A DNA stretch of 64,000 nucleotides from a virus (taxonomy: Duplodnaviria; Caudoviricetes), in IMG/VR virus record IMGVR_UViG_3300031555_003590, positions 160,001 through 224,000 of that record. One strand, written 5' to 3'. Both the position numbers and the translations under genes were made by a program. This document shows, piece by piece, positions 38,610 to 55,769 of this stretch. Position 1 is the first letter of the stretch, and every line of letters starts with the position of its first letter. The notes under the pieces were generated by a model. That model worked only from the letters and a program-made list of their open reading frames with translations, did no database searches and was not told where the DNA came from.

Positions 38610-38643
38610 ATAATAGAGGGAGCATTATAGCTCCCTCTATTAT
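38610..38643. terminator. bidirectional terminator between convergent units
   Basis: ataatagagggagc-attata-gctccctctattat; 24-nt core identical to 63419..63442. Confidence 0.75.
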
Positions 38644-38644
38644 A

Positions 38645-38809
38645 TTATTTATTATTAGTAACTTGATTAGTTTTCATATCTTCTCTAAGAGGAAGAGTTA
38701 CAGATAGATTCATTACTTCAGAATGAATATTTTCAGGAACATCAGATTCTTTTCGTTCACCTTTTTGAATCAATCTAGCCCAATATTTAATTAGATGACG
38801 TTTAGCCAT
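38645..38809 (-). CDS. small CD1375-like protein
   Basis: Not in ORF track; MAKRHLIKYWARLIQKGERKESDVPENIHSEV...; AAGGAGGT RBS. Confidence 0.6.
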   Translation of the reverse strand: MAKRHLIKYWARLIQKGERKESDVPENIHSEVMNLSVTLPLREDMKTNQVTNNK

Positions 38810-38810
38810 A

Positions 38811-38993
38811 TTAATTACCTCCTTTATATTGTTTTAATGCTTTACGCTCATGACCAGTAGATCTATCATTTTTAATATCATCTTCAATCATTTTAATTAA
38901 TTCATCACGCAATCTACTATCATCAATATCTTTTAAAGATTTTGATCCATTACGAATATATTTTAAATATTCATCTAAAATTTCATTTCTCAT
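38811..38993 (-). CDS. small CD1375-like protein
   Basis: YLKYIRNGSKSLKDIDDSRLRDEL resembles the neighbouring ORF; AAGGAGG RBS. Confidence 0.55.
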   Translation of the reverse strand: MRNEILDEYLKYIRNGSKSLKDIDDSRLRDELIKMIEDDIKNDRSTGHERKALKQYKGGN

Positions 38994-39027: not shown

Positions 39028-40164
39028 TTAACTATTAGGGGGAGGTAGTATAAATCCTTGACCCATTCGTAAAGTTAGATTCTTAATATCATCAATTGAA
39101 TTAATATTCATTCGTTCAAACATTGAACGTTTTTTACAGGTATAATTAAATTCATCATCTACAGGAATATATAATCCATCAATATAATGATATTCAGAAG
39201 TTCTACTAAATGCTTTTTCTTTTGCAATACCGCCAAATGCAATCATATTACGATTATCCATTTGATCTTTAGTTTTAGTTTCACTAAGTACAGGATGATC
39301 AATAACAAATTTAGAATATTTATCAGTCAAAAAAATATATGGCCTATCCATATGACGAATAATATCCATCTCATCTAAAGAAAATCCAATATCGCCATAA
39401 TTTAAATGATAATCTTTATTATTATCATTGAATTCTTTAATAATTATGCGGAATTTTTTAGAAATATTATAATAATCTTCTTTATAATTAGGAGATACAG
39501 TCATTCCATCTGGATGTACAATGTTAGCCATTAATTCTAAATCTTCTTTAAAAATATCCCAATTCTTAGGATCTTGACCATTAAACATTGCTACCAAATC
39601 ACAATTAACATATAAACCATGTTTTTGGAATTCGTGTACAATCTCAGCTAATCTTTCAGGACTAACATGAATTCTATTTTGTCCTTTACATGCTTCTTTA
39701 TTGAATGATTGAATACCAATACTAATATGATGATATTTCATTGTATGAATCATAAAATCCATTCTTTCATCAGTCATATCAATAGGATGAATTTCTGTAC
39801 GTCTAATTCCAAATTTATCATAGTTAGGAAATATTTCAGTCATTCTTTTTAATGAATCTAATGTCCATAAACTAGGAGTTCCTCCACCAAAAAACATTTC
39901 AGATATATTTAATTTTCCTATAATTGGAGACATTCTTTCCATCATACGTAGAACAGCATTTTCATATGGAACAATTAAATGTTTATGATCATCATATTTT
40001 AATGCACCAAAAATGCAAAATTTACATACAGAACGACACCATGGATAATGTATATAAATACTTACATCTTCTCCTGCTTTCATTTCATGTTCTTCAAAAT
40101 ATTCTTTCCAAAATTGAACAAAATCATCTTCAGTTAAATATACTGGATATGTATCAAATTTCAA
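39028..40164 (-). CDS. HemN-like radical SAM protein
   Basis: IYIHYPWCRSVCKFC, FGGGTPS, ISIGIQSFN, VNCDL; TTG start. Confidence 0.88.
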   Translation of the reverse strand: MKFDTYPVYLTEDDFVQFWKEYFEEHEMKAGEDVSIYIHYPWCRSVCKFCIFGALKYDDHKHLIVPYENAVLRMMERMSPIIGKLNISEMFFGGGTPSLWTLDSLKRMTEIFPNYDKFGIRRTEIHPIDMTDERMDFMIHTMKYHHISIGIQSFNKEACKGQNRIHVSPERLAEIVHEFQKHGLYVNCDLVAMFNGQDPKNWDIFKEDLELMANIVHPDGMTVSPNYKEDYYNISKKFRIIIKEFNDNNKDYHLNYGDIGFSLDEMDIIRHMDRPYIFLTDKYSKFVIDHPVLSETKTKDQMDNRNMIAFGGIAKEKAFSRTSEYHYIDGLYIPVDDEFNYTCKKRSMFERMNINSIDDIKNLTLRMGQGFILPPPNS

Positions 40165-40166
40165 AT

Positions 40167-40985
40167 TTATTTATCTCCTTTCATTTCATTTACTAATTTA
40201 GCAAACTTTTTTGGAAATGAGCAATGATGTTGAAGTATGCATGGTTTACAAATACTAGCTCTTTCACATGTATAACATTCCATAACCATAGCAGGTTTTA
40301 CATCATGAGGACATTTATGAGTTAATGTCCCATCAGGATTTAATGTATAAACTCCACTACAATCAAAGTACCAATGATTTATTCTATCTGCAATTTCATT
40401 TGGAATATCTGATCTCCATTTAGTATATAATTCACATAAAAAATCGTCTACTCTTTCAAAATATTTTGAATCCATATTTCCATTATAATGTTCTAATTTA
40501 ATACGTTTAAACATTGAAGCATTCCATTGATCAACTATTTTTAAAAAATTATCTACTCCAAAATTAAGAAGATCATCATCCATTGTAATTAATAATGAAG
40601 GTTTTACTTTAGTTATTCCGCTTAATTGTTTGCAATTATTATACCAAACATCATATTGAATTTTAGTAAATCTATTAGGATTCCATGATGTAGCAACACT
40701 ACCTAATTTATTATAATATTCAATTAATTTATCATTCAATATCATTAAATTGGTAGAAATAGATGAAATCTTTTTATTATTAATTTCACATTCATTTATA
40801 ATATCAAACATTCTATCTTGATAGATAGTAGGTTCTCCACCAAATAGAATTATTCTTCCATCAAATGATAATAATTTTTCTAAGAATTTTTCTTTATTAA
40901 AATCATCTTCAAGTTTATATACATCACAATGAGGACAGGATAAATTGCATTGTCTAGTTATTAATGCATATAAAGTTTTTCCCAT
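40167..40985 (-). CDS. radical SAM protein with Cys-rich SPASM-like C-terminus
   Basis: CNLSCPHC, FGGEP, C..YTLNPDG...CP, CYTC.....CKPC.....C. Confidence 0.9.
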   Translation of the reverse strand: MGKTLYALITRQCNLSCPHCDVYKLEDDFNKEKFLEKLLSFDGRIILFGGEPTIYQDRMFDIINECEINNKKISSISTNLMILNDKLIEYYNKLGSVATSWNPNRFTKIQYDVWYNNCKQLSGITKVKPSLLITMDDDLLNFGVDNFLKIVDQWNASMFKRIKLEHYNGNMDSKYFERVDDFLCELYTKWRSDIPNEIADRINHWYFDCSGVYTLNPDGTLTHKCPHDVKPAMVMECYTCERASICKPCILQHHCSFPKKFAKLVNEMKGDK

Positions 40986-41001: not shown

Positions 41002-41982
41002 TTATAAAATCCATCCAGATTTAAGGATTCTAGATTCTAATTTTTTCATTTCAGTACAATAATTAGGATCTAATTTTGCTTCAATACGATTAACTTCACA
41101 TCCATTACATAAATTAAATAGTTCACAATATGCGCATTCTTTTGTAATAAAATCATTATAATTAATATGCTCATATTTAGGAATATAATCTGGATTAATT
41201 AATTCATCTTTAGGAATTTCAATACCCATTGATAATTTTTCATCGCATGTTCCAACATGCATAATATCATTATTATCAATATATACACATCTGATTGTAG
41301 AATTGCAAGAATGTTGAATATTATATGGACAAGTCCCCTTATGTCTATATTTACAATTCCATTCATAATCTTCAAGTCCAGCATCAATAATATCTAAATA
41401 ATGTTTCATCATTTTATATCGTTGATAGCCGATAGACTGATAACCAACTCCAACAGCTCTATTCAATTTACAAATAGTACCTAAACGTTTTGCTAATAAA
41501 ATATGATCCATGACAGTATTTTCATTGTCATCATCAATTACTGCAATAAACATTGGAACTCCTTTATCAGGTACATATTTTTTAAAACGTTCAATTACAT
41601 CAATGAACATTTCTTCAGTAAATATAGTATCTTTATTCCATCGTCTAGTATTACCATAATTAAATGAAGTAGTAATTTTAAACCATTTTTCATTAAATAA
41701 TGGAGCCCATTTTTCAGGATGAAGATAAAAATCTTTCAAGTTAGTAGTAGGACTAATATTTACATTAGGCATTAATTCATGTAATTCATAATAATAATCA
41801 GGTTGCATTAATAAAGGTTCTCCACCAGTAATAATAATTGTGGTAGGATTCATTTGTTTAATTAATTCTTTAATCTTATTAGGAACTTTTTCATCTTTAG
41901 GATGTTGAATTGTCATATCACCAGCAGAACAAAATGTACATGAAAAATTACATCTGCCAGTTGGTTTAATAATTAATTCCAT
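41002..41982 (-). CDS. radical SAM/SPASM protein (anSME/peptide-maturase-like)
   Basis: LIIKPTGRCNFSCTFC, TGGEP, CPY.....C, GTC, CAYCELFNLCNGC...C. Confidence 0.92.
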   Translation of the reverse strand: MELIIKPTGRCNFSCTFCSAGDMTIQHPKDEKVPNKIKELIKQMNPTTIIITGGEPLLMQPDYYYELHELMPNVNISPTTNLKDFYLHPEKWAPLFNEKWFKITTSFNYGNTRRWNKDTIFTEEMFIDVIERFKKYVPDKGVPMFIAVIDDDNENTVMDHILLAKRLGTICKLNRAVGVGYQSIGYQRYKMMKHYLDIIDAGLEDYEWNCKYRHKGTCPYNIQHSCNSTIRCVYIDNNDIMHVGTCDEKLSMGIEIPKDELINPDYIPKYEHINYNDFITKECAYCELFNLCNGCEVNRIEAKLDPNYCTEMKKLESRILKSGWIL

Positions 41983-42034: not shown

Positions 42035-42074
42035 TGATATAGATTATATCCCAAATGGGATATAATCTATATCA
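42035..42074. terminator. 18-bp perfect stem hairpin
   Basis: tgatatagattatatccc-aaat-gggatataatctatatca. Confidence 0.65.
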
Positions 42075-42080
42075 TTAATA

Positions 42081-43316
42081 TTATTGAATCATTGATAAAC
42101 GTTTTAATGCATCAGCAATATCTGCATCAATTTGATTCTGAACTTCTTGATGTAATTTAGTATGAAGTTCTTCCGGTGATAAATTTTCATCATCATTTAT
42201 TTCAGATATCGTATTATTTGTAATATAAAAATCCATCGAAGTTTCATTATTTTTAATATAATTATAAATAGGACCTGAATAATTTTCAGAATATTCAGAT
42301 GGATTTTGTACAGATGATTCTAATTTATCTTTTTCAGCTGAATTAGTAAAAATAAAATATGGATTACAAATATTATTGATTATTTTATACATGTTATCAT
42401 CGGTATTTAAATCAGAAATATGAGCATTAATTATATCACAAGGCCTCATACTAATAAGCATATCACTTTCAATATTATTCTTCATTAAATAAATTACTGC
42501 AGGAATTACAGGTAATTTTAAAAATTGAGCAATGATTAATTTGATATAATCATCATCCGACGCAGATGTAATTTTACCTTGAGAAATTCTAAAATATAGC
42601 GGTGCAGTTAATCCATTTTTACAAATAGATTCAAACATTTCAAATACTTCATCAGTAGTTCTACCTGCAAATCCTAATTCTTTTTTATTAATATCCCAAT
42701 AAAAAATATTTTCAGGGATATCTTGTTTAGAATAATATTCATAAGGAAGATTTACACATAAAGCTGGAAATTTATACATATATTTATTAATTTTAATATC
42801 ATCATAATATACACTTTCTGTAAACATTGCATATTTAATTTCATCTGAAATTGTTCCAAAAGGAAGTGAATCATTATATACTTCAATATCTTTTTCACTT
42901 TGAATTTTAATTTTATCTAATACTTGTCTAAATGGAATTTTACAATTATTTCCATTATAAATGTTTAAAATCATATCAATATTACCAAACTTAACTGCTC
43001 TAAAATAATCAAAAGTAGGAATAAATATATCTGCATTACTAAAATATTCAGATACTTGATATCCATCAACTAGATCTGTATATTTCGATGTATCTGATTC
43101 TTTTAGACCATCTTCATATTTTAATAAAAATTTAGGAAGATTAATTTCTTTTTCAGATAAAATTTGTTTTACTTCATCTGCAGTTAATTTAATTACTTGC
43201 TTTGTAGAACGATGACGAAGAATATCAGTGTTACATTTAGATACAAATGCTTTATCTAATGTCATAACTGGAAGTTTAATTTTAGATTTTAATTCAGAAT
43301 AAATAATATCATTCAT
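42081..43316 (-). CDS. hypothetical protein, possible degenerate ParB/Srx-like domain
   Basis: 411 aa; ESICKNGLTAPL...IAQFLKLPVIPAVI. Confidence 0.7.
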   Translation of the reverse strand: MNDIIYSELKSKIKLPVMTLDKAFVSKCNTDILRHRSTKQVIKLTADEVKQILSEKEINLPKFLLKYEDGLKESDTSKYTDLVDGYQVSEYFSNADIFIPTFDYFRAVKFGNIDMILNIYNGNNCKIPFRQVLDKIKIQSEKDIEVYNDSLPFGTISDEIKYAMFTESVYYDDIKINKYMYKFPALCVNLPYEYYSKQDIPENIFYWDINKKELGFAGRTTDEVFEMFESICKNGLTAPLYFRISQGKITSASDDDYIKLIIAQFLKLPVIPAVIYLMKNNIESDMLISMRPCDIINAHISDLNTDDNMYKIINNICNPYFIFTNSAEKDKLESSVQNPSEYSENYSGPIYNYIKNNETSMDFYITNNTISEINDDENLSPEELHTKLHQEVQNQIDADIADALKRLSMIQ

Positions 43317-44055
43317 CTATATCTACCTCTTCTTCTTGTATTAATAAATTATTTATTTTATCAACAAAATCATTTTGAACATCTTCAGGAGCAAAGAAAA
43401 TATTTAAAAGATTAATAACTGGAAGATTTTTATTAATTCTAGCAATTGAAATTTGATCTTCTCCATCAAAATACTTACTATAAAATTTCATATTAGAAGT
43501 ATCTACATTTTGGAATATAATTCCAAAATATTTTGATATCGTTAAACGTGAGAAATTTTTAAAATTAATTTCATCATAATCAGTATTTTCAAATTCTTCA
43601 TCAAATTCAATCATATCAGATCCAGTCGCACCTGATTTAATATATTTATATATTCCCAATACTGTAAGTGATGCAATTAAATTATATATATTATTAATTA
43701 ATTCTATATTTCTAATTTTAAATAAATCAATTTCACTTGAATTTAAAATTCCAGTAATATCATTATCTAAATATTTAGATAATAAAATATCAATCCATGT
43801 ATCAATCATTTCTTTATTCATACTAGATATATCGCCAGTCATAAACATTAAAATGAATTTCTCTTTATCTTCATATGAACATTTACTGAAGTCTAAATTA
43901 AGATCAAGATCAATATTGCGTAAAAAAATAAATGTTGCTCTAATTTTTACATCATCGTTACAGGGGAATTGTAACTGACTCATATCAACAGGGATGCTTG
44001 TTATATCTGGTAAATCTAATAATGATAAATCAAATGGTAATGTTAAATATTCCAA
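43309..44055 (-). CDS. hypothetical acidic protein in radical SAM cluster
   Basis: 248 aa, TTG start after AGGAGGT, overlaps next gene. Confidence 0.75.
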   Translation of the reverse strand: MEYLTLPFDLSLLDLPDITSIPVDMSQLQFPCNDDVKIRATFIFLRNIDLDLNLDFSKCSYEDKEKFILMFMTGDISSMNKEMIDTWIDILLSKYLDNDITGILNSSEIDLFKIRNIELINNIYNLIASLTVLGIYKYIKSGATGSDMIEFDEEFENTDYDEINFKNFSRLTISKYFGIIFQNVDTSNMKFYSKYFDGEDQISIARINKNLPVINLLNIFFAPEDVQNDFVDKINNLLIQEEEVDIDE

Positions 44056-44080: not shown

Positions 44081-45340
44081 TTAATCTGAATAACAATCAT
44101 CATGACAATCATCATGACAATCTCGATAACAATTATTATGACATACTGTATGACACATCTCATTAGTGTATTCATAATTATATTTACTAGTATTATTCCA
44201 TGCAGTTAAACATGCACTCAATAATTGAGTAATATTAGTGGCACTAATAACAGAACCAACTTTAATTGAATGAGATACTGCACTACCAGTACTAGTAACA
44301 GTAGTAGTACTATCATATGATGGATAAACACTAGATGGAATAGTATAATTATATACTTTAGTAACAGTAGTTCTAGTTATATAATAATTATAACTTCCTT
44401 TAGAAATAGCATTCCATTGAGTTTCAGTACCAGTATAATTTACAGTAGTTAACGATGAAGTATTATAGAATGATCTTACCCCAATACTAGTAATTGTATT
44501 TGGAATAGTTATTGTATTTAATGCTGTACAATAATAAAAAACATAAGTTCCAATTGTTTTTAATTTATTACCAAGAATTGCAGAAGTTAATGCAGTACAA
44601 TTATAGAATGCATTATTTCCAATAGTAGTAGTATTAGGAGAAAGAGTAATACTAGTTAAAGCAGTACATCCATAAAAAGCTCTATATCCAATACTATATA
44701 CAGTATCAGGCATAATAATAGACTGTAAATTAGTATATCCTTGAAATGCACTATCTGCTATACCCATTACTCTATAATTTCCAACAGTTTCAGGAATAAT
44801 AATTTTAGTTAAACTAAAACATGAATCTTTTACAGGAGTAATAAATCCAGTAGTAGCATCAATAGTAAAATAACTTTCTGGAGTTGTTGTAAAATTAGTT
44901 GTACTAGTTTTATATCCGATGTTACGTACATAATTATTGGTAAAAACAACTTTACCGCTTTTTGTAGCTTTTAGTATATACCTATCATAAATAACTTGTC
45001 CTTTAGTATATCCATTACTATCATGAGTACTTTCTGCAATATGACTTTCATGTAAATATCGTACATATGAAAATGTACCTACTCTAGTAAGATTTTTAGT
45101 AGTATTAATAATAGCATTAGCTAAAGTTGAAGCTGAAATTTTTTGACCAACTATACCAATTTCAGGTGTAGGAAGATTTGATATATCATCCATCATAGTA
45201 GAAGGAACACATTGATATTGACCTTCCATTGGAGGATTTCCTTTATGATATGCATTAGCTTTAATTGTATTTAAAACAGTTGAAGTAAATAAATTAATAA
45301 TATCAGCACGTTTAATAGCACTGCCAGCACTAACAGCCAT
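44081..45340 (-). CDS. probable tail-associated protein with BspA-like LRR insert and C-terminal (C-[H/Y]-x-x)6 tail; candidate radical SAM substrate
   Basis: LRR repeats (L.SI..P.....IG..AFY.CT.L); C-terminus CHTVCHNNCYRDCHDDCHDDCYSD. Confidence 0.75.
   Translation of the reverse strand: MAVSAGSAIKRADIINLFTSTVLNTIKANAYHKGNPPMEGQYQCVPSTMMDDISNLPTPEIGIVGQKISASTLANAIINTTKNLTRVGTFSYVRYLHESHIAESTHDSNGYTKGQVIYDRYILKATKSGKVVFTNNYVRNIGYKTSTTNFTTTPESYFTIDATTGFITPVKDSCFSLTKIIIPETVGNYRVMGIADSAFQGYTNLQSIIMPDTVYSIGYRAFYGCTALTSITLSPNTTTIGNNAFYNCTALTSAILGNKLKTIGTYVFYYCTALNTITIPNTITSIGVRSFYNTSSLTTVNYTGTETQWNAISKGSYNYYITRTTVTKVYNYTIPSSVYPSYDSTTTVTSTGSAVSHSIKVGSVISATNITQLLSACLTAWNNTSKYNYEYTNEMCHTVCHNNCYRDCHDDCHDDCYSD
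44084..44155 (-). repeat. six 12-nt tandem units encoding C-[H/Y]-x-x
   Basis: TGT CAT ACA GTA / TGT CAT AAT AAT / TGT TAT CGA GAT / TGT CAT GAT GAT x2 / TGT TAT TCA GAT. Confidence 0.9.
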
Positions 45341-45432: not shown

Positions 45433-45915
45433 TTAGGCAAAAACTGCATTAAATGCTACCCAAGCATTGCCAGTATAAACTTTAACAAGTTTATTAGCAG
45501 TATCAAACCATACATCTTTATTATTAGTTGGGCTGCTAGGTGCAGTAGCTCCTACAGTAAAACGAATACCACCAACAGTATCTGAATTACCACCACCAGC
45601 AATAAATGTTGTTGGGATACCAGATAGATCTGAATATTTACCAGTATGAGCTACAGTAGATAAACCGGTAATCATAGTATATGGGTGAGTTGCAGGGTGA
45701 GGATTGTTTAATGCTCCAGCTTCGATCCCTGCAAGTTTAGTTTTCTCATTAGTCGTATAATTATTGGTACTGAACCCAGGAGTAGAACCATTAGCCAATC
45801 TATGATTTGATGCACCACCAGAACCTAAATGGTTATCAAAGTCAGTTACAACTTTATCCCATTTATTACGTTCATCAACACTAATATGTTGTTTAATTTG
45901 AGAATTATCAGCCAT
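45433..45915 (-). CDS. short tail-fibre-like protein
   Basis: HISVDERNKWD (shared with 51996..55769), EKTKLAGIEAGA, HPATHP, GATAPSSP...VWFD. Confidence 0.7.
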   Translation of the reverse strand: MADNSQIKQHISVDERNKWDKVVTDFDNHLGSGGASNHRLANGSTPGFSTNNYTTNEKTKLAGIEAGALNNPHPATHPYTMITGLSTVAHTGKYSDLSGIPTTFIAGGGNSDTVGGIRFTVGATAPSSPTNNKDVWFDTANKLVKVYTGNAWVAFNAVFA

Positions 45916-46019: not shown

Positions 46020-49000
46020 TTATCTTACTGCAGTAATATTAATAATTAGATTTTTGCTACCCATACGGAATTCATATATATTATCAACATCAGTACTATT
46101 GATAATTACATTAAAGTCATCAGTACTAAAGTTAATTCCAGTAATAGTAGAATCAGTAATAGTAGCAGTTAAAGTTATAAGATCAGCTTCAAATGCAGCA
46201 TCTAAATCAGATTCAACTGTAACACCATCAATTTGATTAATAGTAATTGTATATTCACTATCTTCAGGTTCAGTTGTGGTTAATTTACGATAAGGAGGAG
46301 CAACAATATAATTTGAAGCCTTTCTCATAAAGATTCGAGCACCAGTACCAATTATTGGTACACCATTTGTAAACATATCAGAAGCACTATATACAGTTGA
46401 GAATGTCTGACCATTTGTACCAACATTGATAGCAGCTTGTTTATTAATTGTAACATTAGAAACCATTGAATTACAATCACGCATAAATAGATCCATACTA
46501 TTATCGCCAGTTATATTATCAGGAATTTTAATTGGTTTATTAAATGCATGGCATTCAGTCATAAAATTACGTAAACAAGCTTTTCCAGAAATTCCTTCAG
46601 GAATAGTAATAGATTGGTTAAATGATTTACAACACATCAAAAATCTTTCAAGACAACCATCACCAGTTACAACATCAGGAATTTTAATCGGTTTATTAAA
46701 GCTAGTACATCCATAAAGGAATCCATGTAAACAATTACTTCCATAAATATTTTCAGGAATAATTACATTAGAATTGAAACTAGTGCAATTTCTCATGAAA
46801 TATTTTAGACATCTATCTCCACCAACACTATCAGGAATAGTAATAGACTGATTGAAATTTGTACATCCCATTAGGAAGTTTCTTAAACAATCATCACCAT
46901 GCACAGTAGTTGGAATATGATTTAAAGATGTTAGATTAATGAAATTACGACCAAAATTTCGTAAAGAAGAAATATGAGGTTCATCTTCATTATATGCATC
47001 AACTAATATAATTTCACAAGAATTAGATATATTTCCACAAGTAACTGTAACTGTTAGAGTATTCCCAACAGACTCATTCATACCAATATAAAGTTCTGCA
47101 GATAATTTATCATCAGATGGAGTTATTTGAGTTCCACTAAAGAATAGGAATCCTTCATCAGTAGCACCTGATACAGACCATTCAATATTATCAATTGAAT
47201 CATTTACAATTGAATCATCAGTACCAAGTAATGATATGTTGAAGTTTACAGAAGTACTCGAGTAATCTTTGTAAATAGTTTTTGATACAGCATCCATATT
47301 AATAGCATAAATTTTACTTTCATAATCAGATGTATCTCCGACAGAAATTAACAGTTTCTTATTATAATCACTATTAATACCAAATCCATCATTAATAGTT
47401 GCATCAAGTATCATATATCCAGAATTATTACCTGCTAGAATTAAATAGGTTGAACTTGCATCACTTGTAGGAATATTAAGCAATTTAGTTCCATCAGGAA
47501 TCTCAGTTGCATCCCAAATAATAGTTTTATTAGTTGTATTAGTAGGAGTAATAGTAGTAATTTCAGATAAGTTTAGATATTTAGTATTATCAATTTCTCT
47601 TCCATATACATCAATTAATTTATTATCAGAAGTAAATATTGTACCATCTTCAAATAAAACATATCCATTTGGTAATCTAATATAATTTCTTACAGTTGCT
47701 ATAGAATTAACTTCTTCTAATACTTCTAATGAACTAATTTCATCAATATTAAATGTAATATCACTTAAAATACAGATTTGATTAGAAGAATCGATATATG
47801 CACCATAAGGAAGATTAATATTGACATCACCATCTTGGTTAGTTCCTAATTCAGTAATTCCGCTATCAATATTATATGTATATTCATCAGGAAGTTTAAT
47901 TGATGTTCCATTTTTAATTGTGGTTGTATCAGGAAGTAATACAATATCGTTTTTATAATCAATTACAATACCATGAGTTGTAATACGATATAATATTTCT
48001 CCATGAGTATAATCTATTTCAGGATCATAATCAAATATAATATTAGCATTAGTTAATGGATCATTACCAATGGTACCAATAGTAATATTATTCCATTCTT
48101 CTTCAGTACCAGTATATTTTATTGTAGTTAGATTAACACATTCTGCAAATGCATTGTCACTAATACCAGTAACAAGTATGCCTAAAATTACTTTTGGAAT
48201 AATAATTTCACTATATTCTTTAGCCTTTTTAATTACTCCGCTAATAGTACCGGATTCGTCAATAATTACAAGAATTTCTTCTCCAGTAGGAACAATTAAA
48301 TCACCATTTGTATCAAGAATAGTACCAATTGGAATTTCAACTAAACTATTATCATATCTAATAAATGTATCAGGGAATTGAATTAATTTAGGATCAACTG
48401 TAAATATAGTATCAGCATATTTTAGATTTAGAATTAAATCTTCTTCATCAGAATTATTATATCTAATTAATGTACCATCTGAATGCATAAATATATTATT
48501 AGGAAGAAAATGCATTCCATAAAATGAATTATCTGCATCTATAGATATACAACCATCTTGATTATCAGATGGAGTAACATCAGCAAATGAAGATTTTTCA
48601 ATTTCAGGTTCTATAAATTCATATGTTTCAATTTTATCATTAGATAAAGTAATATCTGTAACAGGTACAGTATTATCTTCATGAGTACTTTCAGTCCAGA
48701 ATTCAACTGCTGTAATTTGATCTTTACGGAAAGTTGTACCATCAATAGTAATTGTAGAATCTGAAGGTAGATCTGTACAAAGATTATTTAAATCAGCCAT
48801 ACTATATACTTTAACATTAGCTCCAGTGTTAAGAGTTAAAGTTAAAATAGGATTAGTATAAGTGGTATCTTGTGCAATTGCTCTTATAGTAAATAATTTA
48901 GTATAAGAATCACCAGCTTGACTTAAATCATACCAATCAATTGCATCACCTTGACCATTCTGTACAGATGCCTGAATAGTAAATTCGCCAGGATGATCAC

Positions 49001-51977
49001 AATAAATAATATTATTTGTATCTCCTTTTAATACTGCACCAGCATTATTAGGATATTGATCTTGATCAAAATGAACATCATCCATTCTCCAGATTAAATC
49101 AGTATAACTAGGAACTTCTTCATCCCAAGTAGGATTATGATACCCAATACCACCATTTGTTTCAAGTTCACCAGATATAATAAAATCTTTACCTACAGGA
49201 ATTTCTAATGGTACATTAGAAACATCTTTAATTGCAATGAATGGAGGAAGTGTTTCAATTGTATAATTTTGAGAATAATCTTCACCAGGACTAGGTCCAA
49301 GACCAAATGGAACTTTTAAAGTGATATTAATTTTACCAGGGTCATATGGGAATAAATAATTTTCTTCTCTAGCCCAATCAAAGAAATCACTTATAGCTTT
49401 ATGGCTAAATGTAGTTTTGGCAGGATTAAAGATAATGCTATCTGCTCCACCATATTCTTGAGCTCTAGAAGATCTCCACTGTAATGTTGGTGCAGAAGCA
49501 TTCCAAGGATATACCACAGATTGATCAAGTAAAACTGGATAATGACAACGCAATGGTTTAGGAAGTTTAAGTTCAACATTTGTAATAGGAACATAAACGT
49601 CTTTTGCTGCAGGAGGAATAATTTTAATACCTGCAGTTATACTGAAATCCTTTCCTTCATTATATCCATCAACAATAGTCAGTTTCATAACAACTAAAGG
49701 TTCCATATCAGAAGTCATGTTATGAGGATCGATTTGAATAGTATTATTAGAAGAATCAAATATAGCATTTGCAACACTAGCATCAATCATTTCCATAATA
49801 ACAGTAGTTTTAGTTGCATTAGATGGTGTTACTGTTGTACTTAAAGTAATAGGAGCACCATTAGTTGTATTTGGATCATATTCAGTAGGATTAAGTTCAA
49901 TATTTTCAACTGGAACCCATGCAGCTTCAACTTTAAAAGTGAAACTTTTAACAAAATTTTGTGAAGAACCTTTACCATTTAAAACTGTTGCAGTTAATGT
50001 AAATTCACCAGTTCCAGTAAAACTAATTACTCCATCATTAATAGCAGCACCTGTAGATCCTGGAGATGAAATATTAAAAATAATATCACGATTATCAGCA
50101 TCATCAGGTGAAACTTTACCAGATAGAATAATAGTATTATCTGCTCTAATAGTAGATGGAAAATTTACTAAAGTAATATCAGTTACAGGAACAAATGCTT
50201 TTGCAATAGTAACAACAAATTCTTTACTAAAATCAAGATTTGGAGAAATACCTTTAGCTACTGTAGCTTTAAGTTTTAAAGTACCAGCTGCTTCAGCTAA
50301 TAATTTATTTCCACTACTAATAGTAGCACCTGTACTACCTGCATCAATAATAGACCATGTAATAGTTTTAGCCGATGCAGTTGATGGTGAAACTGTACCA
50401 GTTAAAGTAGAAGTAACACCAGCAGTTGCATTTGTTAATAATCCAGTAATATCAGTTACTGATACATATGTTGGTACATTAATATCAATTGTATCTTCAT
50501 ATAAACCATCTATAGTAGTAGCAGTAATAGTAACATCACCTTCATGAATTGAAAGAGCATTACCATTTTCATCAATCTGAATTACATTAGAATCACTGGA
50601 TTTCCAAACTACTTTTGGTTTAGTTGCATTAGTAGGAGTAATACTAATATCAAATTTTTGTTCACTACCAAGTATCATAGAACTAATATTAGGTGTAATG
50701 GTAATTGATTTTAATTCAATATTAACAGTTACTTGAGACATAGTAGTTCGTACAGTAGTTGCACCAGGACTACTAACTTCACAATAGTAATAGTAAACTC
50801 CTGCTTCAATATTTGAAGGAATTTCATAAGTAGCTTTATTTCCATTAGCAACAGCAATAGCCCCGCTAAAAGAATTAACATGATTGCGATACCATTTATA
50901 TGATATGATACCATTATCCGATTTTGCACTAACATAAATAGATTGATCAATAGAACCGTGTACTAGTGCAACCTGCTCAGTAGGTTGTGCTATAATGCTA
51001 ATTGTATTTGGTTTTGCATAGATACTGAAGTCTTTACTAAAATTACCTCCTTCTTCACTAGCTCCACCAACAACAGTACCACGTAGTACAATATCACCAG
51101 TAGTATTAGCTGTTAAACTATCTCCATTAATTGTTGCATCTCCAGATACAATAGTCCATGTAATACCTTGTACAGTTGAATCAGTAGGAAATACAGTACA
51201 AGGAGATAGATCAACTTTAAGACCTGCAGTTATAGTTTCAGGAACATTAAGAATATCAGTTACTGGGACAAATTCAGGCTCTATAACAATTATTTTGATA
51301 TTAAAACTAGCATTAGCACTACGATAAACAATTATACATGGAGAGTTAGATGGATAAGGAGTTTCCATATCAAATTTAATTACTGCATTATCACTATTAG
51401 TAGCAACAACTTCAGGATTTTTAAGATTGATAATAGAACCATCGCCCATTCTAGCTCCCCAATGATCATCTCCTGCTGAAATAGTAAATTCAATATCAGC
51501 AAGTTGTAAAGGAAATGGAATAGTGGCAATTAAACGATCAACTAATCCATTTTCATATTTACCACCGTTATATCCTTCAGTAGTAAATGCAAAATGACCA
51601 CTTAATGTATTTTCACTAAATGGTCTTTCATCTCCTGTATGCTCTTTGATATTAAATGTTGCAGTATCACTTCTATATACAAGAGTACAAGGAGAATTAG
51701 CGGCATATGCTGTAGCCATATCAAATTCAACGATACTATTATCGCGATTCTGATATAATACTTTAGGATTGGAAAGGGGGATGATAGAACCATCCCCCAT
51801 TTGAGCACCCCAATCCTCGGCACCGCTAGAAATTATAAAATCTACATCAACATTTTGAAGTTGATATACTATAGAAAAAATGCATTTCTTAACACTACCG
51901 GTTGAATCACTTTTAATTCCATCTAAACCGTCTAGTGTAAATCCATAATAACCGGTACGTTGATTAATCAGTGCCAT
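46020..51977 (-). CDS. giant adhesin-like tail fibre / receptor-binding protein (Ig-like repeats, LRR cap, DUF285-like repeats), 1985 aa
   Basis: ATG 51977 after AGGAGGTGA; recurring FVPVTDI..P.NAT.K...W Ig-like units; 26-aa repeats LRNFLMGCTNFNQSITIP near C-terminus. Confidence 0.75.
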   Translation of the reverse strand: MALINQRTGYYGFTLDGLDGIKSDSTGSVKKCIFSIVYQLQNVDVDFIISSGAEDWGAQMGDGSIIPLSNPKVLYQNRDNSIVEFDMATAYAANSPCTLVYRSDTATFNIKEHTGDERPFSENTLSGHFAFTTEGYNGGKYENGLVDRLIATIPFPLQLADIEFTISAGDDHWGARMGDGSIINLKNPEVVATNSDNAVIKFDMETPYPSNSPCIIVYRSANASFNIKIIVIEPEFVPVTDILNVPETITAGLKVDLSPCTVFPTDSTVQGITWTIVSGDATINGDSLTANTTGDIVLRGTVVGGASEEGGNFSKDFSIYAKPNTISIIAQPTEQVALVHGSIDQSIYVSAKSDNGIISYKWYRNHVNSFSGAIAVANGNKATYEIPSNIEAGVYYYYCEVSSPGATTVRTTMSQVTVNIELKSITITPNISSMILGSEQKFDISITPTNATKPKVVWKSSDSNVIQIDENGNALSIHEGDVTITATTIDGLYEDTIDINVPTYVSVTDITGLLTNATAGVTSTLTGTVSPSTASAKTITWSIIDAGSTGATISSGNKLLAEAAGTLKLKATVAKGISPNLDFSKEFVVTIAKAFVPVTDITLVNFPSTIRADNTIILSGKVSPDDADNRDIIFNISSPGSTGAAINDGVISFTGTGEFTLTATVLNGKGSSQNFVKSFTFKVEAAWVPVENIELNPTEYDPNTTNGAPITLSTTVTPSNATKTTVIMEMIDASVANAIFDSSNNTIQIDPHNMTSDMEPLVVMKLTIVDGYNEGKDFSITAGIKIIPPAAKDVYVPITNVELKLPKPLRCHYPVLLDQSVVYPWNASAPTLQWRSSRAQEYGGADSIIFNPAKTTFSHKAISDFFDWAREENYLFPYDPGKINITLKVPFGLGPSPGEDYSQNYTIETLPPFIAIKDVSNVPLEIPVGKDFIISGELETNGGIGYHNPTWDEEVPSYTDLIWRMDDVHFDQDQYPNNAGAVLKGDTNNIIYCDHPGEFTIQASVQNGQGDAIDWYDLSQAGDSYTKLFTIRAIAQDTTYTNPILTLTLNTGANVKVYSMADLNNLCTDLPSDSTITIDGTTFRKDQITAVEFWTESTHEDNTVPVTDITLSNDKIETYEFIEPEIEKSSFADVTPSDNQDGCISIDADNSFYGMHFLPNNIFMHSDGTLIRYNNSDEEDLILNLKYADTIFTVDPKLIQFPDTFIRYDNSLVEIPIGTILDTNGDLIVPTGEEILVIIDESGTISGVIKKAKEYSEIIIPKVILGILVTGISDNAFAECVNLTTIKYTGTEEEWNNITIGTIGNDPLTNANIIFDYDPEIDYTHGEILYRITTHGIVIDYKNDIVLLPDTTTIKNGTSIKLPDEYTYNIDSGITELGTNQDGDVNINLPYGAYIDSSNQICILSDITFNIDEISSLEVLEEVNSIATVRNYIRLPNGYVLFEDGTIFTSDNKLIDVYGREIDNTKYLNLSEITTITPTNTTNKTIIWDATEIPDGTKLLNIPTSDASSTYLILAGNNSGYMILDATINDGFGINSDYNKKLLISVGDTSDYESKIYAINMDAVSKTIYKDYSSTSVNFNISLLGTDDSIVNDSIDNIEWSVSGATDEGFLFFSGTQITPSDDKLSAELYIGMNESVGNTLTVTVTCGNISNSCEIILVDAYNEDEPHISSLRNFGRNFINLTSLNHIPTTVHGDDCLRNFLMGCTNFNQSITIPDSVGGDRCLKYFMRNCTSFNSNVIIPENIYGSNCLHGFLYGCTSFNKPIKIPDVVTGDGCLERFLMCCKSFNQSITIPEGISGKACLRNFMTECHAFNKPIKIPDNITGDNSMDLFMRDCNSMVSNVTINKQAAINVGTNGQTFSTVYSASDMFTNGVPIIGTGARIFMRKASNYIVAPPYRKLTTTEPEDSEYTITINQIDGVTVESDLDAAFEADLITLTATITDSTITGINFSTDDFNVIINSTDVDNIYEFRMGSKNLIINITAVR

Positions 51978-51995
51978 ATTGGTACTCACCTCCTA

Positions 51996-54900
51996 TTAGA
52001 CTTCTTTAACATTAATCCATGCTTTATTAGTACGATATACTAGTTGGCAAGGAGAGTTTGCAGGGTATGGAGTTTCCATAATAAATTGTACGATTGCATT
52101 TGTATTAGTGATTTCAATGATAGTAGGATCGGATAAACGAATATAACTACCATCGCCCATACGTGCTGCCCAAGCTCCTTCAACTTCAGAAATAGTAACT
52201 TCAACATTACCAGACTTAGGAGTATAATTTATATTAAACCATACAGTATTTACTTGTCCATTTTCATCTGATACAGTTGAAACTCCATCAGAATTATTTA
52301 CAGTTGTACCACTATGACCAGATAGCTGATTAATTACCATTTCAGCAGTATCATCATCGCTACCATCACCAGTTGCAGGTTTACCAGGACCAATGTTAAT
52401 ACCATCAGGACCACCAATACCAGTTCCAGGTACAGGATTAATTAATCTCCAATATGTTCCATCAAAGGTAAACATATGAGTATGATTTTTACCAAGCATA
52501 CCAGTTGTTAGAGGGGCTCCTGCAAATAAAATTACTGCAGCACCAGTATCATTGACATTTAAAGTAGTATCAAGTTCACCACTACGATCTTCATTAGCAA
52601 ATGTAATTGCAACAGTAGTACCAATTTGTCTCATGAATACTACAGGATCCATATATGTAGAACGTAGAGTTGCAACCTTATTTGGATTACCACTTGCAGT
52701 GGCAGATTCACCATTACTTACACCAACTAAATTTCTACGTACCCATTCAGATGAAACAAATGCATTAGAATTATCATCATCTGGTAAAGTATGGGTACCA
52801 GAAGGATTCTCTAATCTCCAATTATTACCATCAAAGGTAAATGTGTAAGTATGATTTGCTTTAATCATACCATTTATAATTGGTTTACCACCATAAATAA
52901 TCATTGCATTACCGCTACCATGTACATTCATATACACATTTTCAGTAGCAAGATCATCTTCAGCGAAATTAACTACTACAGTACTACCAGTTTGTCTCAT
53001 GAATACTGGATTTTCCATAAAGTCAGATCTTAAAGTTACTACTTTAATATTATTAGCACTTTCAGTTTCACAATCACCAAATTGAACACCAACTGCATTT
53101 CGTCTAATCCATGCAGTAGTTGCAATGCGATTATCATTAGAATTATCAGGGGCAATTACAGCTCTAGGTTCTCCAGTTAATTCAGTAATATCATGAGTAG
53201 TATCAGGGAAATGAACAGGAGCACGAGTTTCATCAGTTGGATGTCTATGATCACCTCTAGCATATGTACCATCATCAGTGCCACGGAATACAGTTCCATC
53301 CATTAAAGGATCAATATCAGCTGCTTTAGTATGACCAAATAGACTAATAGTGGCTCTACCAAAAGTAGATGCAGAAGGTGAAGTATGAACTCTAGGTGCT
53401 TTAGTTAGCTCTAGCATACGACCCATATTCGCGGATAATGCAGCTAAAGAATTAGTAGATTCAAGATTATCAATAACATCTACAGATTCAAGGTCATTAA
53501 TAATCTCCATAATATCATTTACATCAACTTTATTCTGATTTAAAATTCTACCCATATTTGCAGATAGGGGTCTATCAGTTTCATAAGAAATTAAATTATC
53601 AACTACTTGTTTTCTTACAAATTCAGTAGTTGCAATACGAGTAGATTTATCAGTAACAGGTTGAGTAGTAGTAGTTGGAGAACCCGGTAAATTGGTAGAA
53701 GGTTTAATTTCATCTTCACTAATAGTACCAGGAAGAACAGATGCTTTGATACTATTATCATCAAGAACTTCAACTTGAACATTTTTACTCATACTACCAG
53801 TATAAACTTTAATCATAGAACTAATATCAATTCTATTTTCATTTCCATCAGGTAGTAGAATTACTAATTCACCTTCATTGGCATCAAAGGTAATATTTTT
53901 AAATACTTCAGTAATTGGAATTTGAATAGATTTTTCAGTACCATTTTTATATATGAAAGTAAGAGTAGTAGTTGAATCATTCCATTCAACATCATCAACA
54001 AAGTTGATTAAAGTAATATCACCTGTAACAGTACCAATTTTATCTAATAGATCATCTAATGCTTCCTGTACAGCGTTAGAAATAGGCTTATCCATATCAG
54101 AAGTATTATTAACATTTCCTAATCCAATTTGCTGAGCAGTAACATTATGAGGATTATAGAAATTCTGAGTATGATCAGTAAATGTGGCTACTGGAACTGC
54201 ACCAATTTGAGTAGCAGTAGTTCTATGAGGATTACTATAATCATTAATATGTTCATATAGATCTTCTTTAATTGAATCTATACCACCATTACCAGTAATC
54301 TTTTCAAGAATTTCAGTAACATTATCATTTACAATTTCAAATTGACGAGTGGCTGCTCTTTGAGTAATAAAACCATCTTCATTATCTCCAAGCTCATTAT
54401 ACCATTCAGGACGTCCTTTAATCATATCCCAACTGACAATTCCGGAAGGTAAACCATCTCCGCCAATAATTAAATCTCCAAGTACATCCATAATACCACG
54501 CCAAGTAGTATCATAATTGGAGTCTGTCATTTTAACTAAAACTTCACCAGTTAAACCACCAATTGGAACTCCTTGGCCATTAGTACCATCAAAATAGTCA
54601 ACCCCTTTAATTGGAGTATAACCATCTTTTCCTTTAATAATATAAGGACCAGGTGCAGTAGTTTCTTTAGATTTAACCCATGAAAGTTCACCAGTAGTTT
54701 CATCAAATACTGGACGCCACATCATATCACTATTACTAGAACCAGTATCAGTGTCTCCACTATTATCATTATTACCACCAGCAAATAGACCAGTAAATCT
54801 ACCCTGTACCCAAACATACATTGCAGTATCAGGATATCTAATTACTAAATCTCCTACTTTCATTGCTTGGAAACCAACCTCTTGCCAAACCATACCAGGA

Positions 54901-55769
54901 CGTTTAACATAAATAATACAATCCTGACTTTCATTATTTTGATAATCAGTTGCAGGTTTCAAAGCAAAATAAGTAATATCATCATTTTCAACAGTTGGTA
55001 ATACATCTCCATATTGAAGTACATAATTAGGATTCCAGTTAGTAGCATGATATTCAACTAACTCAGCTTTACTTTGTCTATCATCCCAATATATATTTAA
55101 ATAATTAAAGAAAGATTCTCTAAGATTAGTAAACATATCATCAATTTCTTGACGACTATATGTACCAACTTGATGTGCAGTAGTATGATGAGGATTATTT
55201 AAATCATAAATATGATCATCAACAGTTTTCTGATCAGCTTTATTATTCCATTTACCACGTTCTACTTCAGTAATATGCATTGCAGTATTACTAATATGAG
55301 AATGCAATGTACTCATTGGAGCCATAGAATTCCAACGGCTGCGTTCAACATCAGTTACATGAATAGAATTATCATTAACATGAGTACTAAACTGAGACAT
55401 TGGAACTTTTGTATCTAGAGCATCACCAATTGCTCTTTCGCTTACAACTTTTTGATGTGAACGTACAGTAGGATCAGAATTAATAGATTTCAATACTTCC
55501 ATTGATCCTACAGTACCTCGTACACCAGTCCAAGTCATAAGTTGATTAGGAACACCAGGTTCAATTGTAGATTGTTTTTCATTAATTAAACGATAAATAC
55601 TTTCCAATTCATCGAGTAGATTAGTGGATTCATCATCCATATTTCTCTTAATAGCTTCATATACGGAAATAGGATATGAATAATCATAATCATAATCAGG
55701 AATTGGGGTTGGATTTGGGTCATGCCAAATTCGAGATTGAATAATTCTTTTATCCTTTAGCTGTCCCAT
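51996..55769 (-). CDS. long tail fibre protein
   Basis: H..D..NPH..TA.Q.G repeats, GLGNVNNTSDMDKPIS, LSANMGR x2, RIATT..VR repeats, collagen-like GKDGYTP. Confidence 0.8.
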   Translation of the reverse strand: MGQLKDKRIIQSRIWHDPNPTPIPDYDYDYSYPISVYEAIKRNMDDESTNLLDELESIYRLINEKQSTIEPGVPNQLMTWTGVRGTVGSMEVLKSINSDPTVRSHQKVVSERAIGDALDTKVPMSQFSTHVNDNSIHVTDVERSRWNSMAPMSTLHSHISNTAMHITEVERGKWNNKADQKTVDDHIYDLNNPHHTTAHQVGTYSRQEIDDMFTNLRESFFNYLNIYWDDRQSKAELVEYHATNWNPNYVLQYGDVLPTVENDDITYFALKPATDYQNNESQDCIIYVKRPGMVWQEVGFQAMKVGDLVIRYPDTAMYVWVQGRFTGLFAGGNNDNSGDTDTGSSNSDMMWRPVFDETTGELSWVKSKETTAPGPYIIKGKDGYTPIKGVDYFDGTNGQGVPIGGLTGEVLVKMTDSNYDTTWRGIMDVLGDLIIGGDGLPSGIVSWDMIKGRPEWYNELGDNEDGFITQRAATRQFEIVNDNVTEILEKITGNGGIDSIKEDLYEHINDYSNPHRTTATQIGAVPVATFTDHTQNFYNPHNVTAQQIGLGNVNNTSDMDKPISNAVQEALDDLLDKIGTVTGDITLINFVDDVEWNDSTTTLTFIYKNGTEKSIQIPITEVFKNITFDANEGELVILLPDGNENRIDISSMIKVYTGSMSKNVQVEVLDDNSIKASVLPGTISEDEIKPSTNLPGSPTTTTQPVTDKSTRIATTEFVRKQVVDNLISYETDRPLSANMGRILNQNKVDVNDIMEIINDLESVDVIDNLESTNSLAALSANMGRMLELTKAPRVHTSPSASTFGRATISLFGHTKAADIDPLMDGTVFRGTDDGTYARGDHRHPTDETRAPVHFPDTTHDITELTGEPRAVIAPDNSNDNRIATTAWIRRNAVGVQFGDCETESANNIKVVTLRSDFMENPVFMRQTGSTVVVNFAEDDLATENVYMNVHGSGNAMIIYGGKPIINGMIKANHTYTFTFDGNNWRLENPSGTHTLPDDDNSNAFVSSEWVRRNLVGVSNGESATASGNPNKVATLRSTYMDPVVFMRQIGTTVAITFANEDRSGELDTTLNVNDTGAAVILFAGAPLTTGMLGKNHTHMFTFDGTYWRLINPVPGTGIGGPDGINIGPGKPATGDGSDDDTAEMVINQLSGHSGTTVNNSDGVSTVSDENGQVNTVWFNINYTPKSGNVEVTISEVEGAWAARMGDGSYIRLSDPTIIEITNTNAIVQFIMETPYPANSPCQLVYRTNKAWINVKEV

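Follow-up and report, generated by a model that had tools for sequence, protein, structure and literature searches.

A Cys-His repeat tail on a jumbo-phage tail-fibre-module protein travels with radical SAM enzymes that may modify it

What is a strictly repeated four-residue Cys-His motif doing at the very end of a phage protein, and do the radical S-adenosylmethionine (SAM) enzymes encoded just downstream act on it? The question is raised by gene A (P0001) in a 64,000-nucleotide stretch of viral DNA, hereafter the window, which covers positions 160001-224000 of the 292,119-bp genome in IMG/VR record IMGVR_UViG_3300031555_003590 (28% G+C). Following the residues NEM, protein A ends in the units CHTV, CHNN, CYRD, CHDD, CHDD and CYSD, that is, in six strict C-[H/Y]-x-x units (24 residues) that run directly into the stop codon (44081-44083). 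A preliminary description made from the sequence had placed the repeat at 44081-44160, with His or Tyr always at position 2 (H, H, Y, H, H, Y), Asp or Asn at position 4 of five of the six units (V, N, D, D, D, D) and three occurrences of CX3CH, and translation of the minus-strand open reading frame (ORF) agrees on every count. We propose that this tail, which is predicted to be disordered, would be the substrate of two SPASM-type radical SAM enzymes from the same operon (orthogroups R2 and R9), probably through Cys-centred chemistry, and we put the probability of this at about 0.6. The proposal is drawn from the co-occurrence of tail and enzymes in both search directions, in phages as well as in Bdellovibrionota.

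The repeat itself is genuine. At the DNA level it is underlain by a 12-nt tandem repeat (TRF: period 12, 4.2 copies, 80% matches, 44093-44143), and the fourth and fifth units have the same DNA sequence. When all 292 kb of the genome were scanned in six frames, period-4 runs of at least four Cys turned up at only two loci, the tail of A and a second protein, P0006, and a chance origin of the tail was rejected on this ground; the same scan yielded no runs of at least four Cys at periods 3, 5 or 6 and two at period 2. An estimate from codon composition gives about 1e-4 expected six-unit runs per genome. The closest relative of the window cassette, locus L125, has a tail that matches unit for unit (CHND, CHSS, CHYD, CHND, CHSD and CYSD before the stop codon), with the Cys kept in 6/6 units, the aromatic residue in 5/6, position 3 in 1/6 and position 4 in 4/6.

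Relatives of the locus proved hard to reach with single sequences. A blastn comparison of the 7.4-kb locus with deposited phages came back empty, residues 320-419 of P0001 retrieved nothing but themselves in a word-based homology search, and single-sequence locus searches of viral contigs with P0004 (the window's R2 enzyme) and P0003 (gene C) found nothing, so that a profile of remote matches was needed. A loose DNA motif encoding C-[HYND]-x-D three times retrieved mainly giant-virus and unrelated sequences and was left unused. On the contigs with the best match to P0004 we found a collinear A homologue with C-H repeats, followed by gene B, a short C and two radical SAM genes. A profile of 32 family members then yielded 311 viral loci, 80 of which were kept; the enzyme-side counts given throughout are over 85 loci. 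A C-H-tailed A gene lies within ~8 kb of the enzyme in 49 of these 85 loci, on the same strand in all but one. The A proteins collected in this way (126-435 aa) form a large phage family without annotation, whose members match the C-terminus of P0001 and often its N-terminus too, and which has no match in NCBIfam even at E-values up to 10.

The search was also run in reverse, from a DNA pattern for the canonical tail (three C-H units followed by R-x-R-R), and returned 80 loci; 78 of them match the A model and 66 carry radical SAM genes. Among the reverse-search loci of at least 9 kb, radical SAM genes are present in 44/47 and B in 44/47. Since the two directions agree, the linkage of tail and enzymes is close to obligatory both ways. 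Five marine T4-like records seemed to be without A, and in four of the five, two tandem A genes lie just past the fetched flank. In the marine T4-like contigs (L181:585-1354; L207-L214) the two tandem A genes are diverged and short (~126-144 aa), and both tails are canonical.

The number of radical SAM genes per locus ranges from 2 to ~10. Beyond viral contigs, the same gene set was found on long Bdellovibrionota contigs of metagenome-assembled genomes (MAGs) and in a few gut MAG bins, with canonical tails throughout. In cultured phages, tblastn identified the enzyme family in Ralstonia phages RSF1 and RSL2, Burkholderia phages FLC6 and FLC8, Pseudomonas phage pPa_SNUABM_DT01, Sinorhizobium phage Phosso and Agrobacterium phage Atu_ph07. 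RSF1 ORF071 and Atu_ph07 gp170, both annotated as hypothetical, end in ...CHSSCHSSCHGSRGRR and ...CHSSCHASCHNSRSRR, respectively. In the literature on CXXX repeats with radical SAM enzymes and on radical SAM clusters of jumbo phages we found no published description of the cassette; one jumbo-phage paper merely lists the genes.

This linkage bears directly on the possibility that the tail is targeted not by the local enzymes but by a distant maturase of the same genome, of the TIGR04115 'CXXX-repeat target' type. Targets of that family are defined by a Cys at each fourth residue, the tail of A is formally a CXXX repeat, and a bona fide example of the system is encoded elsewhere in this genome, with the TIGR04115-type enzyme beside P0006. 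However, the C-H tail is paired with R2-family enzymes in over 100 loci, its tight local operon is kept with it in L125, L126, L128 and L129, and the TIGR04115-type gene lies more than 58 kb away beside a target of its own. Further, the units of P0006 lack the His that is near-invariant in the tail family, and TIGR04115 is not among the matches of the local radical SAM enzymes. We therefore regard targeting by the distant enzyme as very improbable.

The P0006 set is a separate system, located ~53-58 kb past the end of the window. P0006 has 892 aa, with dozens of CXXX units at roughly residues 300-690 (L001:5469-8147, minus strand; C1:277588-280266). The TIGR04115-type protein (759 aa; L001:9220-11499, minus strand) scores 334 bits (E = 1e-99) where the cut-off is 350 and has Hint/intein-like Pfam matches at residues 198-231, and a weak U32-peptidase-like gene, P0007, lies between the two.

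Which features of the tail are constant can be read from 52 distinct tails comprising 158 units. Position 1 is Cys in 100% of the units and position 2 is His in 94%, with Tyr (4%) as the sole recurrent substitute; position 3 is small and variable (S, T, G, A, Y), and position 4 is Ser (62%), Asn (23%) or Asp (9%). Three units are present in 35 of the 52 tails, and 45 of the 52 end in R-x-R-R directly before the stop codon. The family alignment A2, which covers 38 homologues, has two invariant Cys columns and three more, two of His and one of Cys, that are at least 90% conserved; C396, C400, C404, H397 and H401 of P0001 fall in these columns. The repeat singled out in the preliminary description is thus conserved in homologues, and aligning their tails shows the Cys and His to be the constant part; the Asp/Asn at position 4, by contrast, belongs to the window's own lineage, and the number of units is usually three as opposed to the six seen here.

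Comparison of the tails indicates that the family constant is the Cys-His pair and that Asp/Asn at position 4 is a lineage trait. L125 and L126, which are 75% identical to the window, likewise have six units with an acidic position 4 and no basic ending, and the tails of L128 and L120 also depart from the canonical three units plus R-x-R-R, which the window tail does not show. By the same comparison, the window cassette is best described as a derived variant of the canonical form. In L120:75-932 (plus strand), whose radical SAM enzyme is 52% identical, the C-H repeats are internal and are followed by ~90 residues with scattered Cys and an acidic end, so a terminal placement is not obligatory in this lineage.

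The ending of the tail also varies with the enzyme content of the cassette. Clustering of 308 radical SAM ORFs gave the orthogroups used here, and an R2 member followed by a member of R9, R5, R10 or R11 was found in every distinct gene order assessed (those in which the next radical SAM gene lies inside the fetched stretch, with L141 and cut loci set aside). All 33 distinct cassettes with an R-x-R-R ending hold at least one of R5, R6, R13, R17, R21 and R22; the 6 distinct cassettes without it hold none of these. Within R9-bearing cassettes, R-x-R-R is kept where R6, R13 or R17 is present and lost where they are not. The window phage, which has lost this ending, also lacks the additional enzyme groups. 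This pattern suggests a division of labour, the R2 pair being tied to the C-H repeats and accessory enzymes to the basic end, which we offer as a lead rather than a result.

Both P0004 (R2) and P0162 (R9) carry CX3CX2C at the extreme N-terminus and a C-terminal SPASM-type block (CX2CX5CX2C...C). Neither has an N-terminal recognition element (RRE) of the kind found with RiPPs (peptides made by the ribosome and then modified after translation), and the radical SAM core of P0004 begins at residue 1, leaving no space for a fused N-terminal RRE. The P0004 family is small, with 196 matches at E < 1e-3 among 1.84e9 representatives in an exhaustive HMMER search. Anaerobic sulfatase-maturating enzymes (anSMEs) act without a leader peptide, their target being a Cys or Ser of a folded protein. 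Among solved structures, the P0004 family profile finds its best relative in the anSME 4k37 (E = 1.2e-11), with a full-length match that includes the SPASM part, and R2 resembles the anSMEs (PDB 4K36-4K39) in being compact and without an RRE. The similarity, though real, is low, A has no sulfatase domain, and the sulfatase motif C/S-x-P/A-x-R is absent from the window tail; the canonical tail end C-H-[G/S/T]-[S/A]-R bears a loose resemblance to it.

The closest described system in logic is HXS, an antiphage system composed of HxsA, the radical SAM enzymes HxsB and HxsC, and HxsD (TIGR03976-03979), in which a chemically undefined +8 Da modification is placed on SHRSS (Li et al., Nat Commun 2026, PMC13128918). 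As in the window, a full-size protein with tandem repeats of the His-x-Ser type is accompanied by a radical SAM pair and a small non-enzymatic partner, and the unit C-H-x-S contains His-x-Ser. The two differ in that HXS is bacterial and defensive, with a period of 3 and no Cys, whereas the window system is phage-encoded, with a period of 4 and an invariant Cys on a member of a virion-protein family. In NCBIfam all matches of P0004 and P0162 are weak, HxsC being the best for P0004 and among the better ones for P0162, and the scores fall far below family level (30.8/24 bits for HxsC, cut-off 267.9; 18.9/17 bits for HxsB, cut-off 370); HxsA and HxsD have no match to A, B or C.

How do these comparisons bear on the chemistry? 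The general idea of the preliminary description, that SPASM radical SAM enzymes act on the tail, is supported by comparative genomics, and no specific chemistry is established; two of the three chemistries that it named depend on traits confined to this lineage. Its first suggestion was the aromatic-x-x cyclophane of the triceptide synthases (XyeB, GrrM, YhhB, FxsB), and the tandem H/Y-x-S/N/D triad, in which His is near-invariant and replaced recurrently only by Tyr, speaks for this. It leaves the invariant Cys unexplained, though, and the window enzymes score 15-26 bits against cut-offs of 425-445 (23 against 445 for YhhB), with the proviso that distant SPASM enzymes can share chemistry. The second was a Cys-to-Asp thioether as made by PapB on PapA (freyrasin). 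Like the ranthipeptide and sactipeptide maturases, PapB is a SPASM radical SAM enzyme that works on tandem short Cys units, and in the window's lineage an Asp stands three residues past the Cys. PapB, however, recognizes CX3D in a leader-bearing peptide, whereas the window has CX2D in a family of 126-435-aa proteins, and the match to NF047865 reaches 18 bits against 340. Given that Asp makes up 9% of position 4 across the family, a PapB-like Cys-Asp link cannot be the family chemistry, and this reading was rejected as a family-wide explanation.

The third suggestion was a metal or haem site; c-type haem attachment at CX3CH aided by a HemN/HemW-like protein was rejected on the same footing. The tail does hold three CX3CH motifs and the operon does include a HemN-like gene, P0163. 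Yet this gene occurs in 4/85 related loci as against 49/85 for the C-H tail, its product scores 60-77 bits with HemN, ChuW/HutW and HemW, all under the NCBIfam cut-offs, and we read no signal-peptide-like hydrophobic stretch at the N-terminus of A that would export it to the haem-attachment machinery. A haem site in the window protein thus appears extremely improbable. HemN-like enzymes of peptide clusters are usually methyltransferases, and P0163 would probably add a step confined to this lineage, such as methylation.

The predicted structure of A places the repeats on a flexible extension of a folded protein. The tail residues 398-419 have an AlphaFold predicted local distance difference test (pLDDT) score of ~40, i.e. 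they are predicted to be disordered, on a confident base domain. Residues 1-140 are homologous to the N-termini of short family members and conserved family-wide, and the helix that precedes the repeats is conserved in all homologues of alignment A2. Between these two parts lies a leucine-rich repeat (LRR) domain that belongs to LRR_5 (PF13306; 114 bits, cut-off 27.7), resembles Treponema pallidum TpLRR 6mlx (VIA Z 20.9, root-mean-square deviation (rmsd) 3.1, 175 aligned residues) and is missing from most family members in the alignment. Comparison of the base domain with the PDB found nothing above noise (best Z 5.2, rmsd 6.6), and a BFVD search returned uncharacterised family members only. 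Matches of the base domain to TssK and baseplate proteins (Z 3.7) were not significant and were set aside.

Protein B is the most constant companion of A. It follows A in 20 of the 21 distinct A-containing gene orders, has a family size of ~245 aa, and in the window is encoded directly 3' of A by P0002, a homologue of the B genes of 58 loci. No Pfam, NCBIfam, PDB or meaningful PADLOC relatives were found for it and the family has nearly no invariant residues, a single Asn excepted, so that B does not look like an enzyme. Modelling of the complex with full-length A gave a score of 0.69, the best of three controls reaching 0.00; 58/80 solved complexes and 2/110 mismatched pairs attain that mark, a calibration that is rough only, own alignments having been used. 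The model runs agree in at least 58% of contacts, with a partner pLDDT of at least 83, and the confident B contacts fall on residues 7-26, 64-89, 130-135 and 370-378 of A, all in the conserved base domain close to the point of tail exit, with residues 1-140 contributing most of the interface. The model supports binding of B to A.

Evidence that an A protein enters the virus particle comes from Agrobacterium phage Atu_ph07. Its A homologue, with the tail CHSS, CHAS, CHNS and RSRR, has a computed mass of 31,894 Da, which matches gp170, a protein of purified particles that Table S5 of the phage's description, a mass-spectrometry listing of the virion, gives at 31.89 kDa, with 8 unique peptides and 35% coverage (PMC6102473). 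Within the table rows from gp20 to gp197, the radical SAM enzymes gp165, gp168 and gp171 and the B homologue gp169 do not appear (PMC6102473). According to the same table gp170 occurs in gel bands 1-9 and peaks in band 1, where a 127-kDa protein is also found, and the loading buffer lists no reductant (PMC6102473). A 32-kDa protein peaking in band 1 suggests an SDS-stable species of high mass, for which disulfides are possible.

Several observations weigh against the tail being a substrate of R2 and R9. The local enzymes score far under the cut-offs of every characterised maturase family, so that homology gives no ground for assigning a chemistry. B is predicted to contact the base domain of A and not the tail, membership of the virion comes from a distant homologue and not from the window protein, and the partition of R-x-R-R with enzyme content derives from only about three independent lineages. 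Finally, a metal site, too, would be expected to keep Cys and His strictly at a fixed spacing. The tail could accordingly, in the main rival reading, be an unmodified metal module (for instance for Zn, Fe, Ni or Cu, or a shared site on the axis of an oligomer) that staples A into oligomers or onto the fibre, with the radical SAM enzymes doing something else. Positions 3 and 4 vary and only the Cys and His are near-invariant, a pair well known for binding metals, and by itself the tail is modelled without a confident fold, as would be expected of a metal-dependent structure; the band-1 peak of gp170 (32 kDa) in a buffer that lists no reductant would also fit oligomers mediated by Cys or metal. 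However, Tyr, a poor ligand for soft metals, replaces His in two of the six window units and in several relatives, and a metal site explains neither the near-obligatory, two-way linkage of the tail to a dedicated and rare radical SAM family nor the partition of tail endings with enzyme content. On balance we consider a purely metal-binding tail unlikely.

Modification of the tail by R2 and R9 thus remains our preferred explanation, in which we infer both the action of the enzymes and every chemical detail. Protein A would be made together with the tail-fibre genes, its flexible array of six C-[H/Y]-x-[D/N] units serving as the modification site. B, as a chaperone or presenter, would bind the base domain by the exit of the tail and, judging from the Atu_ph07 homologue, stay outside the particle. 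The two compact, anSME-like SPASM enzymes, without an RRE of their own, may then act on each C-H unit. The likeliest chemistry at the invariant Cys would be either a thioether from the Cys sulfur to the carbon of a nearby residue or oxidation of the Cys beta-carbon, with the neighbouring His or Tyr as a recognition element or as the partner in a second cross-link. The outcome would be a rigid tail, resistant to proteases as well as to reduction, displayed on a protein that contacts the host.

A broader hypothesis, which we hold tentatively and rate somewhat below an even chance, takes the tail to be a modular code on a host-contact virion protein that is rewritten or cross-linked by RiPP-type radical SAM chemistry, with the C-H repeats handled by R2/R9 and R-x-R-R by accessory radical SAM enzymes. 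The window would then represent a two-enzyme form with an expanded acidic array on an LRR adhesin. That the tail is joined to a recognisable adhesin domain suggests a function in binding the host.

Radical SAM maturases are known from peptide natural products, from the maturation of sulfatases and quinoproteins and, recently, from the HXS defence effector. In the literature we found no report of a radical SAM enzyme that modifies a virion structural protein. Modification of the tail, if it occurs, would represent a new kind of virion maturation as well as a new enzyme chemistry, acting on a simple unit of four residues, in a system that hundreds of large phages of gut, soil and marine origin share with predatory bacteria. 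What the window contributes to the family is a derived cassette of minimal size, an acidic tail of six units without a basic end, the LRR insertion, the partition of tail endings with enzymes and the A-B model. Its gene order (A, B, C, R2, R9, HemN-like) is the smallest cassette found, and with two enzymes of the family as opposed to up to ten, six units as opposed to three and no second motif, it should be simpler to reconstitute and to analyse by mass spectrometry.

The genes around the cassette (Table 1) fit a structural setting. Large minus-strand genes at 46020-55769 match tail-fibre PHROG families, from which we read the genome as that of a jumbo phage, and the genes 5' of A encode the 160-aa fibre-like protein P0005 and then fibre proteins of 1989 aa and 1257 aa. 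A P0005 homologue lies directly 5' of A in L125, L126, L128, L129 and L134, and remoter matches occur elsewhere in the locus in L153, L156 and L192. Downstream of A the genes form a tight, co-directional operon with gaps of -8 to 98 nt that ends at a terminator-like hairpin. Gene C has no Pfam, NCBIfam, PDB or meaningful PADLOC relatives. The hairpin between the A-B-C genes and the enzyme genes could, through partial termination, set the ratio of substrate to enzyme.

Table 1. Coordinates of the Cys-His-tailed protein, its domains and the surrounding genes and hairpins in the window
Feature	Position	Strand	Basis or remark
P0005, 160-aa fibre-like protein directly 5' of A	45433..45915	-	partial PHROG tail-fibre matches
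Gene A (P0001, 419 aa), tail-fibre-module protein with the Cys-His tail	44081..45340	-	family alignment A2
N-terminal part of the A base domain (residues 1-140), made of two long helices plus a long beta-hairpin	44921..45340	-	pLDDT mostly 85-93
BspA-type leucine-rich repeat domain of A (residues 146-332), lineage-specific insertion	44345..44905	-	Pfam LRR_5, E = 4.9e-33
C-terminal part of the A base domain (residues 367-396; helix 367-382, strand 388-396), followed by the tail	44153..44242	-	pLDDT 84-90
C-terminal tail of A, six C-[H/Y]-x-x units (residues 396-419), proposed modification site	44084..44155	-	lines up with 37 homologues at their invariant C-H units
Gene B (P0002, 248 aa), conserved partner of A, proposed chaperone or presenter	43309..44055	-	homologues in 58/85 loci
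Gene C (P0003, 411 aa), lineage-specific protein	42081..43316	-	homologues in 8/85 loci, all close relatives of the window cassette
Hairpin between the A-B-C genes and the enzyme genes, perfect 18-bp stem	42035..42074	.	possible attenuator
P0004 (326 aa; R2), radical SAM/SPASM enzyme, universal enzyme of the cassette	41002..41982	-	Pfam Radical_SAM, E = 4.2e-16
P0162 (272 aa; R9), second radical SAM/SPASM-like enzyme, partner after R2	40167..40985	-	Pfam, clustering
P0163 (378 aa), HemN-like (class C type) radical SAM enzyme, lineage-specific addition	39028..40164	-	NCBIfam
Two small ORFs (60 and 54 aa) closing the operon	38645..38993	-	conserved in L125/L126; 54-aa ORF also in L127, L128 and L129
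Terminator-like hairpin at the operon end, between convergent genes	38610..38643	. (listed on + strand)	hairpin search

Cassettes of other members differ in their additional genes. That of the cultured, phiKZ-related phage RSF1 (L205, record 72639-91646), which has a canonical tail, also has, interspersed with its radical SAM genes, genes for a cupin, two 2-oxoglutarate-Fe(II) (2OG-Fe(II)) oxygenases and two dihydrofolate reductases; unlike RSF1, the window cassette has no oxygenase. In L135:8001-9700 the radical SAM genes are present only as short ORF fragments (44-92 aa), which suggests an alternative genetic code or a degraded copy. Several marine loci, L164, L167 and L172 among them, have a tblastn match to R2 that covers ~1290-1440 nt, some 300-460 nt more than the 981-nt gene, suggesting that the gene holds an insertion or an intron there.

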